Below are positions 9,968 to 13,479 of a stretch of DNA of 64,000 nt, piece by piece (positions within the stretch are counted from its first letter, which is position 1; each line of letters begins with the position of its first letter). The notes under the pieces were generated by a model. The model was not told the DNA's origin, did not search any database, and was given only the letters and a program-made list of their open reading frames with translations. This stretch comes from Eledone cirrhosa (Eukaryota). The position numbers and the translations under genes are program-made. The stretch lies in assembly GCA_964016885.1 (NCBI GenBank), contig OZ024743.1, positions 215,078,001-215,142,000 on the forward strand. The letters are read 5' to 3'.

Positions 9968-11233
9968 ATGGCACTGGAACAAGACAACACCACTTCAAAC
10001 TCCAATATCAATGAGGAAATCCTGAAAATCCTAAAAGAGATAAATGGAAAACTCACCATTCTGACAAAAAAACAGGATATACCCCAAACCACCACACCGA
10101 CTGACAACCAAATTTATTTAAACGTTCAAAACGTATGCAACTCCATCGAAAAACTTATGAATACCAACACAGAACAAACGACATTGCTCCATATCAAAAA
10201 CCAAATGGGACACCTCTGGAAAAAACATCTAAAAACCAGAAAATTCACTTTCTGGAATATGATAAAAAACCTCAACAAAGCTGGAATTTACCAAAAATGG
10301 ATTAACTCAACACCGATAGTTTTACCACGTAAATTCCAAATAAAGCATATTACAAACGAACCTGAACCAGAAAGAAAACTCCGTGAACAAATGTCACTCA
10401 ACAGGATAAACATGGAAATAGAACTCCTAAAATTAAGGGCCACCTCAAACGAGCAAGAGTATAAGGATACTGATAAAAATATGGAGGAAGAATGCACTAA
10501 AAAGGCCGAGGGAACAACCCTACAAAATTTAATCAAATCGTGGAAACAGGACTGCGAGAATGCAGAAACTATTTCCCTTAAACGGTGGGAAAAATCCGAA
10601 AACTGGTTCCTCAAATATGAAGAAGACTTTAAAAGGACGCACCAAACAGGTAACCCCTTTATAAAGCATTTGAACATAACAAGAACTACAACAGACACAT
10701 TTACACCACCAAACCCAACACACACTAACCACAGGCACATCCCCCACCAACACAAACCAAATACGGCCAACTACACCAAAAGAAACACACCCAACCACCA
10801 CAACACAGGTTTCCGTAGAAATGCCCCCTACATAAACCAACGACGAAATAACATAGATCCAACTCACAACACACACACCACATTCCTCAGAAGAAATCCA
10901 CCCAGGCCACTTGAAATCACAACAGAACTTACCCACAACCACACCAGACATCACCCTCAATCCAACAAAAGACAACCCCCCAGCCTCAACACTCTGTACC
11001 ACAGAAATAACGCACCCAGACCACATGAACCAACAACAGAACCCTTGCTCATCAACAACCACAACACATACCACCCCCACCATCACATTCACCCTCATGA
11101 AACAACAAGCTACAGACCCACACGCAACAGACCAACAAAATATAATCACACACAAAACTACATTCCTTTTTTAGGGAAAAGCCTGAAATACCAGGATACT
11201 CGATGGCCCCCCCTCAGGAGAAACCAAAAATAA
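9968..11233 (+). CDS. PLE ORF1, 421 aa: helical/coiled-coil-like N-terminal ~230 aa plus H/N/T/P/R-rich low-complexity tail
   Basis: Uninterrupted ATG ORF starting ~22 nt after the pLTR, with the same A/C-rich strand bias as ORF2; heptad-like segments (EEILKILKEINGKL, LNRINMEIELLKLRA). Confidence 0.8.
   Translation: MALEQDNTTSNSNINEEILKILKEINGKLTILTKKQDIPQTTTPTDNQIYLNVQNVCNSIEKLMNTNTEQTTLLHIKNQMGHLWKKHLKTRKFTFWNMIKNLNKAGIYQKWINSTPIVLPRKFQIKHITNEPEPERKLREQMSLNRINMEIELLKLRATSNEQEYKDTDKNMEEECTKKAEGTTLQNLIKSWKQDCENAETISLKRWEKSENWFLKYEEDFKRTHQTGNPFIKHLNITRTTTDTFTPPNPTHTNHRHIPHQHKPNTANYTKRNTPNHHNTGFRRNAPYINQRRNNIDPTHNTHTTFLRRNPPRPLEITTELTHNHTRHHPQSNKRQPPSLNTLYHRNNAPRPHEPTTEPLLINNHNTYHPHHHIHPHETTSYRPTRNRPTKYNHTQNYIPFLGKSLKYQDTRWPPLRRNQK
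11167..11220 (+). promoter_or_regulatory. Candidate -1 programmed ribosomal frameshift signal (T TTT TTA GGG)
   Basis: Heptamer 11167-11173 is correctly phased in ORF1 (cct ttt tta). The -1 frame is open from 11146 into ORF2. Downstream cctg/cagg and cctga/tcagg pairings are possible. Confidence 0.7.
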
Positions 11234-13479
11234 TCAACCTCTCAAAGACACCTCTAACCAACACACAAATCAACATTTTAAGTAAGGGCCTGAAATTTAC
11301 ACCTACACCACGTAAACCAAACTTCCCCGAAATGAAGGATGACATCATGGAATACTGCCGAAAGCTGCGACTAACGGAATTCTTCCACAACGACACCAAC
11401 ACTGAAGACGAATCACTGGTTAGAAATAAAAGCAATTTCTGCCCACAAAAGGGAAGAAATAAAGCACTGGACACGTACTGCGAACACATCACCAACTTTC
11501 CCTATGAAACAATTACAAATAAACACACGAAATCAAACCTATCTACACACGAATGGGAAGAATTATTCACACTTAGAAACAACCCTGAGATAACTATCAA
11601 AGAAGCCGATAAAGGCAGTACTGTTGTGATTATGAATACGGACTACTATAGGACCCTCGCACTTAACATTTTAGAAAACAACACATACTATGAAAAAACA
11701 GAAAACTACAAACACACCAAAACAATGGGGAACCTTTTGACCTTACTGAATAAATACCGCAACAGCTTAACCACAAAAGAGTTTAACTATATAAGCCACT
11801 TCAAATGCAATACAAGCTCTTTTTACGGCTTACCGAAACTTCACAAATGTAAACCCATAAACGATGCATGTGACACCTCAACCAACAATTACATTGAACT
11901 AACACCACCAGAAGACCTAAAACTCAGGCCAATTATAGCAGGCCCTACATGTGAAACCCACAGACTTAGCAACTTTCTGGACATCCTACTGAAACCCTTT
12001 CTACAACATATACAGAGCTACATACGAGATGACCTTGACATGCTGAAACACCTCCCTAAAACAGTAAGTGCAAATACAATTCTTGTCTCCTTTGACGTAA
12101 TAAACCTCTACACAAACATACCTCACAACTATGGAATAACAGCAGTCCAATACTGGCTTAACACACACCCATCAGAAATACCGACACGCATCAACACAGA
12201 TTTTATCACTGACGGACTCCGCTTTATCCTACAAAATAACTACTTCACATTCAATGGTTCAACATACAGACAAGTATCAGGTACGGCAATGGGCACGAAA
12301 GTAGCACCCACATATGCCAACCTAGTCATGGGATTCCATGAACAACAAATATACAGTCAGTCCCTTCTCTTATTTGGAGACTCTTTCCACACACACCTCA
12401 AAGCCAATTGGAAAAGATATCTAGACGACTGCTTTATCCTATGGCAAGAAGACATGAACTCACTTACTACGTTTAAAAACATGATAAACAACATAGATAA
12501 TAACATACAATTCACAATGGAATCCAATCCTAAGGAATTAGCCTTCTTGGATATTCTCATCTCTGTAATAGACGGGAAATTAGATACAGATATATTCTAT
12601 AAACCCACAGATTCCAAGCAATACCTCTTTTTCACATCAAGTCACCCAAAACATACAAAACTTAACATTCCTTACAATTTGGCCAAACGTATATGTACCA
12701 TAGTATCAGATCCACCTAAACGGGAGCAAAGACTAAAGGAACTAAAAGACACCCTTATCTTAAGAGCCTTTCCACTTGAAATAATCAACAATGGAATAGA
12801 CAGGGCAAAACACCTAAATCCCCATCAACTTAACAATCCAAAACAGAAAACCACACTCAACACCCTGCCATATGTATCCACTTTCAACCCCAGAAATACC
12901 GAAATGTTTGATCACCTACACAAAAACCTCCCCATCCTACTTAAAGATGTAAAAATGAAGTCTATTCTTGAAACACACAAGATCCTTAAAAGTAAAAGAC
13001 AACCCAAATCACTTAAACGCATTCTCACTGGACCAAATATACCCAAACCAATCCTCAACCCTACAGTTACCAAATGTGGTAGAACAAACTGTGGAACGTG
13101 CCTCTACCTCACTGAAGGACAAACATTTACATTCAAAGATGGCCAAACATTTACAGTAAAAAACAATTTCACCTGCAACTCGGAGAACTTGATTTACGCA
13201 ATAACTTGCGGTGGGTGCAAACACAACTACATAGGACAGACGGGCACCTCATTACGCAAAAGAATGACCATCCACCGCCAACAAATCCGGGACGCTAACA
13301 CAAGAAAAATCCCCTTGAGCAGCCATATTGCGAACTGCGCAGGAATGACACTACCCAACTTTAAAATCTTTCCCTTCTACAAGTGCTCAGATTCGTTCAC
13401 ACAACAACAAAGAATAAACAAAGAAAATCTATTCCTTAACAAATTTAAACCAAAACTAAACGGGTTATCACCCCAATAG
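11203..13479 (+). CDS. PLE reverse transcriptase + GIY-YIG endonuclease (758 aa from first Met)
   Basis: ADKG, FYGLPKLHK, LRPII, SFDVINLYTNI, GTAMGTKVAPTYANL, RYLDD, FLDI, Cys linker CGRTNCGTC, LIYAITC..YIGQT..R..H. Confidence 0.97.
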   Translation: MAPPQEKPKIINLSKTPLTNTQINILSKGLKFTPTPRKPNFPEMKDDIMEYCRKLRLTEFFHNDTNTEDESLVRNKSNFCPQKGRNKALDTYCEHITNFPYETITNKHTKSNLSTHEWEELFTLRNNPEITIKEADKGSTVVIMNTDYYRTLALNILENNTYYEKTENYKHTKTMGNLLTLLNKYRNSLTTKEFNYISHFKCNTSSFYGLPKLHKCKPINDACDTSTNNYIELTPPEDLKLRPIIAGPTCETHRLSNFLDILLKPFLQHIQSYIRDDLDMLKHLPKTVSANTILVSFDVINLYTNIPHNYGITAVQYWLNTHPSEIPTRINTDFITDGLRFILQNNYFTFNGSTYRQVSGTAMGTKVAPTYANLVMGFHEQQIYSQSLLLFGDSFHTHLKANWKRYLDDCFILWQEDMNSLTTFKNMINNIDNNIQFTMESNPKELAFLDILISVIDGKLDTDIFYKPTDSKQYLFFTSSHPKHTKLNIPYNLAKRICTIVSDPPKREQRLKELKDTLILRAFPLEIINNGIDRAKHLNPHQLNNPKQKTTLNTLPYVSTFNPRNTEMFDHLHKNLPILLKDVKMKSILETHKILKSKRQPKSLKRILTGPNIPKPILNPTVTKCGRTNCGTCLYLTEGQTFTFKDGQTFTVKNNFTCNSENLIYAITCGGCKHNYIGQTGTSLRKRMTIHRQQIRDANTRKIPLSSHIANCAGMTLPNFKIFPFYKCSDSFTQQQRINKENLFLNKFKPKLNGLSPQ

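Follow-up and report, generated by a model that had tools for sequence, protein, structure and literature searches.

A -1 programmed ribosomal frameshift at the heptamer T_TTT_TTA very probably (we put this at about 85%) makes the reverse transcriptase-endonuclease (RT-EN) of a Penelope-like element (PLE) of Eledone cirrhosa, a reading of the sequence that follows from the T6 run of the genomic copies, the in-phase heptamers found across families and the lack of a Met before the RT start. The window, i.e. the whole stretch of 64,000 nucleotides that was analysed, holds at 9968-13479 an intact copy of a young family of these retrotransposons. The products are best read as an ORF1 protein plus a rarer fusion of ~1170 aa, and the 421-aa ORF1 protein would make up most of the output, with the fusion as a minority. 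A large animal clade of endonuclease-bearing (EN+) PLEs would thereby gain a concrete mechanism of RT expression; the clade is usually described as single-ORF, hence its RT N-termini are probably mis-annotated.

Identity and architecture of the element

The element is composed of the following features, all on the plus strand.

9198..9945: 5' pseudo-LTR, with a microsatellite part and a unique part (9496-9945); its left edge is concealed by an N gap that ends at 9197
9756..9794: putative minimal hammerhead-ribozyme-like motif in the 5' repeat, from a pattern scan
9968..11233: ORF1, 421 aa, with a conserved helical domain and a low-complexity tail; stop TAA at 11231-11233
10130..10690: conserved ORF1 domain, four long helices predicted (pLDDT 96), the central loop containing an invariant Pro
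11146..13479: -1 frame, 777 codons, coding for a PLE reverse transcriptase, a Cys linker and, C-terminally, a GIY-YIG endonuclease
11167..11173: T_TTT_TTA, a slippery heptamer phased with ORF1 and a likely -1 ribosomal frameshift site judging from phase and conservation
11203..11206: -1-frame ATG that overlaps codon +11 of ORF1 (TGG), the ORF1-stop position of many relatives
11207..11213: C7 run, of unstable length among copies; 3n+1 expansions fuse both ORFs in older copies
13075..13101: C-x4-C-xx-C linker motif (Neptune/Nematis type), at residue 625 of the 758-aa frame
13192..13338: GIY-YIG motif and CCHH residues (residues 664-712 of the 758-aa frame)
14085..14808: 3' pseudo-LTR, in which the hammerhead-like motif occurs a second time (14619-14657), directly followed by (TA)n

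The terminal repeats had been called near-identical from the sequence alone, and indeed their unique parts agree at 450 of 450 positions (9496-9945 and 14359-14808), while the microsatellite parts differ in length by 24 nt and at 3 substituted positions. The putative hammerhead, as recognized by pattern, has a variant core of the U3-A8 kind described in PMC4209133, a 5-bp stem II and a palindromic CCGG; the sister family (L073/L075) carries an identical core with a different stem II. An Rfam search of the element gave no hammerhead match, its sole matches being microsatellite-driven miRNA ones.

Concerning the -1 frame, it displays the RT motifs GLKF, DKG, GTAMG and YLDD, and RVT_1 scores above its Pfam cut-off. 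In the Pfam search the GIY-YIG domain (PF01541) gave no score on the window's own protein; it scored on many homologs of 42-59% identity. PLE RT, GIY-YIG with CCHH residues, the CX2-5CxxC linker between RT and EN (as defined in PMC8557442) and pseudo-LTRs holding a putative hammerhead together place the element with the EN+ PLEs of Neptune/Nematis type. It departs from their canonical single ORF in having two overlapping ones, and from Athena/Coprina, whose RT has no fused endonuclease, in having GIY-YIG in frame. Copies are interspersed over many chromosomes. The RT tree comes from a quick search, was made without named reference elements and leaves out short hits such as L138, L159 and L180.

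Frame overlap and slippery heptamer

Recomputed frames bear out what the sequence-only reading had described: a 421-aa ORF1 overlapped by the RT-GIY-YIG frame in -1, T TTT TTA at 11167-11173 in slip phase and a fusion of 402 + 768 codons. The -1 frame opens behind a stop at 11143-11145, 7 codons ahead of the heptamer, and extends to 13479, and the ORF1 stop lies 19 codons 3' of the slip site. The heptamer contains the only T6 run within 9968-13479. It should be noted that a scan finds 5 in-phase XXXYYYZ-type words within ORF1, so the heptamer by itself is weak evidence and the case for frameshifting rests on its conservation.

Conservation among copies and relatives

There are 188 genomic matches, and T runs were counted in 100 listed copies: 94 are T6, 5 have a substitution within the 6-base run, 1 is T5 and none is T7. 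Hence the run is six bases long in 99 of the 100. A check of the T-run length in raw reads had also been proposed, and read contigs with depths of 843 and 985 cross the site without a gap. Moreover, 24 copies are identical across 501 bases.

Four further families in the same genome, with 53-58% identity across ~350 residues of the RT frame, keep both CAT TTT TTA and the -1 overlap, and have no Met ahead of the conserved IINL-type start. Relatives elsewhere were found at 128 loci, with the RT N-terminus visible in 58, and in 14 of these a long ORF lies upstream in a -1-compatible frame. Among these 14 two-ORF relatives, 10 carry an in-phase T_TTT_TT(A/G), 3 another in-phase XXXYYYZ word and 1 none, and 13 lack a Met before the RT match. 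Slip phase holds at every one of the 12 T6 sites of this group, and the layout together with the in-phase heptamer persists down to 27-33% RT identity. The proposed check of whether relatives share the T6A site and the -1 overlap thus came out positive in the four own-genome families and in most of the two-ORF relatives elsewhere, giving the conserved in-phase X_XXY_YYZ heptamer of canonical -1 frameshifting. Four relatives of 33-48% identity (L093, L138, L159 and L180, of which only L093 was inspected) lack both a long ORF1 and a heptamer, and the canonical heptamer is absent from L230.

The codons at 17 T6 junctions are always nnT TTT TT(A/G), which locates the constraint on DNA and phase. 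At the protein level, Phe-Leu occurs within the last 60 residues of 64 of 78 ORF1 homologs (at least 330 aa), and within the preceding 60 residues of 7. The 120 listed RT homologs measure 641-803 aa, though up to 1327 were allowed.

Alternative routes to the reverse transcriptase

RT-EN could be a separate protein, made by reinitiation or internal initiation at the 11203 AUG or a near-cognate codon, with the heptamer a relic or plain Phe-Leu coding; we consider this improbable. The AUG is in frame and could yield a 758-aa RT-EN with no slip, it has G at +4, lies 28 nt ahead of the ORF1 stop and is present in the older subfamily too, and several close RT homologs are annotated from a putative start Met at the equivalent place. 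However, the sister family has GTG there, the missing Met of the four own-genome families and the 13 outside relatives leaves them no such start, leaky scanning to 11203 is excluded by 17 upstream ATGs, and mere Phe-Leu coding does not account for a TTT TT(A/G) that is always preceded by T. Still less probable is slippage of RNA polymerase on the T run, whereby one added U would give a minority of transcripts with a fused frame. One contig of run X4, of depth 4.86, does carry an extra T (a single contig below depth 5 may be an error); the changes in X4 are nearly all A>G/T>C, as in edited RNA, and the run is not recorded as RNA. Among the sister-family copies inspected, 2 also have T7. Polymerase slippage needs no phase, yet the two-ORF group shows no T6 site out of slip phase; furthermore, T7 transcripts would enter new insertions, and no listed copy has T7.

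The sequence-only reading had named an indel that makes one continuous ORF in sibling copies as evidence against frameshifting. Such copies do exist as a minority, and the indel lies at the C7 run of older copies, away from the T run: open frames of 1138-1181 aa occur in 6 of 150 listed copies, and all 12 long-frame copies examined carry a 3n+1 insertion at 11206-11211. That these single-ORF copies are the true active elements, mobilising the two-ORF ones in trans, has a probability of only a few percent, a shade below that of polymerase slippage. The run has 7 bases in 83 of 100 listed copies, and its expansions (+1 in eight copies, +2 in three, and +3, +5, +7, +8, +12 and +14) lack in-frame bias past the first step. 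Expanded copies are also older (median 11 against 1.5 differences, 8 against 22 copies, p 0.005) and vary in length inside one sub-lineage, and neither the older subfamily nor the sister families have the C run. An in-frame expansion as a propagated master is supported neither by expansion lengths nor by copy ages. Homopolymers are common error sites, which could speak for an overlap produced by misassembly or by decay of a single ORF; the identical copies, the read contigs, the T-run counts and the conservation across families refute this, the least probable of the alternatives, its chance being close to nil.

Downstream structure and stop spacing

The HIV-1 gag-pol site has a 3' stem-loop. 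Around the present site, folding of four window stretches 3' of the heptamer is no better than in shuffled sequences (z from -0.35 to +0.87), and across 19 junctions z reaches -1.4 or lower in only 3; a simple scan of 18 junctions found no H-type pseudoknot. The hairpin or pseudoknot looked for at the suggestion of the sequence-only reading was therefore not recovered, and the stem-loop or pseudoknot 5-9 nt downstream that is canonical for such sites is missing from these simple predictions, though a long-range or protein-assisted stimulator may act. Two families in the genome have structure-free junction sequences.

The position of the ORF1 stop shows a regularity that is new here. Of 86 ORF1 homologs, 27 end exactly 10 residues past Phe-Leu and 1, spurious, ends earlier, and a C comes right after the stop in 7 of the 8 ten-codon families but in 0 of the 10 others (Fisher p 2.5e-4, a value that exaggerates independence since the families are related, and for a split drawn after the data were seen). 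In folding energy the ten-codon families do not stand apart from the others (p 0.18). The ten-codon stop is absent in 10 of 18 families with DNA, among them the window family, which departs from the rule with a stop after 19 codons and TGG at codon +11.

From the exact spacing, the slip would be triggered by a ribosome queue behind the stop, which is the stimulator that we favour over an RNA fold. Extended to the whole clade, this becomes a natural collision-driven frameshift, to which we give somewhat less than an even chance, in which a slow stop plus C, one ribosome length past U_UUU_UU(A/G), would be the roadblock that replaces the pseudoknot, with families like that of the window pausing via other codons there. 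The leading ribosome would pause across the clade when codon +11 is in its A site; that codon is, in many families, a stop followed by C, at which termination would be slow. Behind the paused leader, the next ribosome would be kept at the heptamer during its translocation attempt and would slip -1 at U_UUU_UU(A/G). In the window family codon +11 is TGG with two Pro codons next, so the pause would have to come from slow codons or a weak hairpin, which is the least certain step. If the collision model is true, RT output would rise with ribosome load, and if the ten-codon stop works as proposed, this would be a natural and selected instance of a -1 frameshift programmed by ribosome collisions.

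Two other arrangements were considered. A two-ribosome distance of 19-20 codons is unsupported: it occurs in 4 of the 10 non-ten families with DNA, yet in only 4 of 58 proteins, and a stop-start AUGA overlap was rejected, ten-codon stops being TAA or TAG without AUG.

Comparison with known systems

The abstract of PMC8557442 presents canonical EN+ PLEs as single-ORF, in line with the sequence-only statement that GIY-YIG PLEs are usually so; that statement needs widening, as ORF1-bearing EN+ PLEs are in print, with esterase ORF1s in Penelope/Neptune-like elements (PMC3905857, PMC5408684) and two non-overlapping ORFs in a killifish Neptune (PMC12602865). These share with the window element a separate upstream ORF; the present ORF1 differs from the esterase ones in having no esterase or other Pfam domain and in overlapping the RT frame. 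In the retrieved text of these three papers 'frameshift' is absent or concerns other elements. With the Neptune/Nematis elements of PMC8557442 the likeness covers RT motifs, GIY-YIG with CCHH, CX2-5CxxC, hammerhead-like pseudo-LTRs and terminal (TA)n. The Fig. 1 legend of that paper (2021) mentions an ORF1 separable by a frameshift with pseudoknot; its retrieved text gives no clade, heptamer or stop spacing, and no pseudoknot was found here. Our literature search gave no paper in which Penelope terms and ribosomal frameshifting occur together, although Arkhipova 2006, the Terminon paper, Repbase entries and that figure may already describe it. Endonuclease-less Athena/Terminon PLEs also have coiled-coil ORFs beside a PLE RT (PMC6431247); they differ from the present element, with its in-frame C-terminal GIY-YIG and interspersed copies on many chromosomes.

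With HIV-1 gag-pol the element shares heptamer (U_UUU_UUA is named the HIV shift site in PMC5009743), phase and the logic of ORF1 leading to an enzyme. The site had been called HIV-type; as no stable 3' fold was found, that likeness is limited to the heptamer. 'Gag-pol-like' similarly fits the layout only: the ORF1 model predicts four long helices with no significant match, and Gag-like folds are absent from the matches listed, although a related family may be missing from such lists. A protease or integrase motif was not noticed either.

Collision-stimulated -1 frameshifting, with a heptamer 5' of a slow stop and no RNA structure, is described in engineered E. coli reporters, with an optimum of 8-10 spacer codons and a peak at 9 (PMC6815119). 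We found prior demonstration only in such bacterial reporters, and in titles and abstract beginnings no natural case of stop spacing. Those reporters are artificial and bacterial, whereas the PLE spacing is natural, eukaryotic and, as read from sequence, one codon longer (10). In SARS-CoV-2 the place where the 0-frame stop lies tunes frameshift efficiency (PMC8168617); that stop is 5 codons off, lies inside the pseudoknot and is proposed to allow refolding, whereas the PLEs avoid stops nearer than 10 codons.

The ORF1 protein

ORF1 is modelled as a helical bundle plus a disordered tail, and would be an RNA-coating structural protein. Pfam assigned it no family, esterase or other domain, and the Atlas search gave no match; among the matches listed, a fold search with the model returned nothing at E <= 0.001, the best (Z 8.9) being generic bundles. 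Compared with the older subfamily, dN/dS is 0.26-0.32 for ORF1 and 0.12-0.15 for ORF2, and purifying selection acts on ORF1. Homology to the N-terminal domain of single-ORF PLEs is suggestive only: one profile comparison gave a weak match (probability 4.6%, E 0.009) and a second none, while the predicted helix pattern and the loop Pro agree. The ORF1 profile matched in 2 of 11 contaminated MAGs and nowhere in two further sets of genomes (0 of 301, 0 of 122), and the viral contigs searched yielded no relative. ORF1 homologs fall into 516 clusters at 50% identity.

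Architecture of the element

The window harbors, on its plus strand, an intact endonuclease-bearing (EN+) Penelope-like element (PLE), with the following features in window positions.

about 9198 to 14808, plus strand: intact element
9968-11233, plus strand: ORF1, 421 aa
11146-13479, plus strand: RT frame, -1 relative to ORF1
11167-11173, plus strand: heptamer T TTT TTA, in ORF1 phase

The frame overlap, the heptamer phase, the -1 frame opening 7 codons before the heptamer and the predicted slip product of 402 + 768 codons, all proposed in the sequence-only reading, are borne out by the window sequence, as are the near-identical terminal repeats, whose 450-base unique part is the same in both copies. 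The heptamer is the only run of six T's (T6) in the coding region. The RT frame combines PLE RT motifs with a C-x4-C-xx-C linker and a CCHH-bearing GIY-YIG domain, which is the Neptune/Nematis layout given in PMC8557442. A pattern scan yields a minimal hammerhead-like motif in both repeats, a candidate without match in an Rfam search; PMC4209133 describes a variant of this minimal type. The 3' end adjoins (TA)n.

Conservation of the heptamer and of the two-ORF layout

The heptamer and the -1 overlap, whose conservation in relatives the sequence-only reading left to be checked, recur widely. The genome contains four more families, with 53-58% identity to the window across some 350 residues; all four keep CAT TTT TTA and the -1 overlap. 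Outside relatives were drawn from metagenomes and contaminated MAGs: among 128 loci, the RT N-terminus is visible in 58, of which 14 have an upstream ORF of at least 90 codons in a -1-compatible frame; ten of these 14 carry in-phase T_TTT_TT(A/G), three another in-phase heptamer and one none. Two further loci combine an in-phase T6 with an ORF1 that is short and probably broken. Neither long upstream ORF nor heptamer is seen in four relatives at 33-48% identity, and many distant relatives are single long ORFs. A quick tree with 49 rows unites 13 T6-bearing rows, window included, on one branch (SH-aLRT 100), with some two-ORF rows outside it.

At the protein level, 516 clusters came out of the ORF1 search; none of the best 150 exceeds 609 aa, and a single one of these, the weakest match, has an RT motif; the 120 RT homologs listed span 641-803 aa. 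Among ORF1 homologs of at least 330 aa, Phe-Leu occurs within the last 60 residues in 64/78, vs 7/78 in the preceding 60. ORF1 shows a dN/dS of 0.26-0.32 against four older copies. A -1 ribosomal frameshift at the heptamer is, from these sequence comparisons, the likely reading (probability about 0.85). Its main rival is RT initiation at an AUG at 11203, formed by the same bases as the TGG found after ten spacer codons (codon +11, see below); the RT start lacks a preceding Met in the four own-genome families, and Met before the RT match is absent in 13 of the 14 two-ORF loci.

It should be noted that many PLE proteins and contigs (P0013, P0043, P0046, P0055; loci L161-L208) are filed as bacterial symbiont or MAG, most likely through host contamination. 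Copies L209-L214 represent a second young two-ORF PLE family in the window's own genome (G000), most of the 60 listed copies sharing one 775-codon RT frame.

Run lengths at the junction

An assembly error as source of the overlap is rejected, since nearly all listed copies keep a six-base run and read contigs are gap-free at the site. In the 3.0 Gb genome, a pattern search tolerant of any run length found 188 junction copies; among 100 listed, 94 have T6, five a six-base run with a substitution, one T5 and none T7. The T-run length, which the sequence-only reading wanted checked against reads, is upheld by contigs at depths of 843 and 985 that span the heptamer without gap. In the 40 best-scoring copies, a sample biased by its selection on score, 24 are identical over 501 bases.

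Sibling copies with an indel giving one continuous ORF, which the sequence-only reading counted against a frameshift, do exist as a minority: a single frame of 1138-1181 aa is open in 6 of the 150 copies listed. In all 12 long-frame copies fetched, however, the insertion lies in the C7 run at 11207-11213 and not in the T run. This run has seven bases in 83 of 100 listed copies (among 104 found; copies with altered flanks escape the pattern) and is expanded in 17, by +1 (8), +2 (3), +3, +5, +7, +8, +12 and +14. The copies with an expanded run are the older ones (a median of 11 differences in 8 copies, against 1.5 in 22 others; p 0.005), expansion length differs inside one sub-lineage, and neither the older subfamily nor the sister families conserve the run. 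We read the fused copies as homopolymer growth after insertion. In some copies among L034-L072 the run exceeds 20 bases, often absorbing flanking G or T.

Stop spacing downstream of the heptamer

The hairpin or pseudoknot expected 3' of an HIV-type site was not borne out, as no stable fold was found after the heptamer in the window and none is conserved across junctions. The conserved feature of the junction is a distance, not a fold. Phe-Leu occurs within 60 residues of the C-terminus in 86 of 126 ORF1 homologs of at least 200 aa, and is followed by exactly 10 residues in 27, more in 58 and fewer in one, a truncated protein with Phe-Leu inside the conserved domain; about 45 such early stops were expected from the stop rate beyond 10. 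Seven control dipeptides show no comparable floor. The ten-residue tails share no common sequence, their proteins being 21-51% identical, and the tree demands 13 changes of this state, no fewer than 7 of them on branches with good support. DNA junctions have 10 spacer codons between heptamer and stop in 7/19 and fewer in 0/19, hence the stops are genuine.

PMC6815119 showed with E. coli reporters that stalling of one ribosome at a stop promotes -1 slippage of the trailing one, with an optimal 9-codon spacer, and bioRxiv 10.1101/710491 reports disomes at stops with a 30-nt period and C enriched after the stop. The base after the stop, examined subsequent to the latter report, is C in 5/7 ten-codon loci vs 0/12 others. 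In two families fetched later the spacer is likewise 10 codons and the stop reads TAA C; no fold at all forms in the 3' region of either. Taking one row per family, C follows the stop in 7/8 ten-codon families vs 0/10 others (p 2.5e-4; local C content 0.22), a comparison that overstates independence because families are related, and in which the pair L086/L088 is represented by L086 (C) and not L088 (A). Judged from sequence, stimulation by ribosome collision across the clade is plausible, at slightly less than even odds.

Concerning the window family, ORF1 stops 19 codons after the heptamer and not ten, codon +11 being TGG, followed by CCC CCC. The older subfamily shares this TGG, as do one sister family and one outside relative; Trp occupies +11 in 4/58 longer tails vs 26/1259 other positions (p 0.04). 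The codon could be the remnant of a stop or a pause that took its place. The ten-codon stop is absent in 10/18 families, hence other stimulators or basal slippage must serve there.

Canonical EN+ PLEs are single-ORF according to PMC8557442, but the legend to its Fig. 1 admits an ORF1 set apart by a frameshift with pseudoknot; nothing was found in its supplement on the window element's clade. The proposed frameshift is itself a variant of something already glimpsed. For neither the fixed stop spacing nor the base-after-stop bias did literature searches, with key papers outside their coverage, return an earlier account.

The ORF1 protein

Structure prediction gives the conserved domain four long helices (pLDDT 96), and neither a Pfam family nor a significant fold match was found for it; a low-complexity tail follows the domain. 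In single-ORF relatives, the N-terminal domain agrees with that of ORF1 in predicted helix pattern and loop Pro, and the profile match is weak; common ancestry is only suggested by these models. A structural, RNA-binding role would be our inference. Esterase ORF1s occur in Penelope/Neptune-like elements (PMC3905857, PMC5408684).

Other elements and side observations

An in-phase T TTT TTA also occurs, at about 1342-1336, in a minus-strand LINE with an AP-endonuclease domain (1-1752). There it is the 0 frame that leads on to the endonuclease, and a stop closes the -1 frame after 75 codons; the arrangement is either reversed or a product of chance. An intact minus-strand 773-aa RT-like ORF (44915-47236; related fragment at 41352-42545, minus) had no match in a Pfam search and carries RWK and DKT motifs, as PMC8557442 describes for Hydra-clade PLEs. 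There are also a plus-strand 3' fragment of another PLE with Cys linker and GIY-YIG domain (23822-24658) and, on the minus strand, the 3' part of a LINE, which includes a zf-RVT domain (58340-59260). A final point of notice is sequencing run X4, of RNA or DNA origin not on record, which differs from window 9946-13500 by 24 A>G, 18 T>C and 2 other changes, a pattern that we take to resemble A-to-I editing of both strands. Its one contig across the junction carries an extra T.
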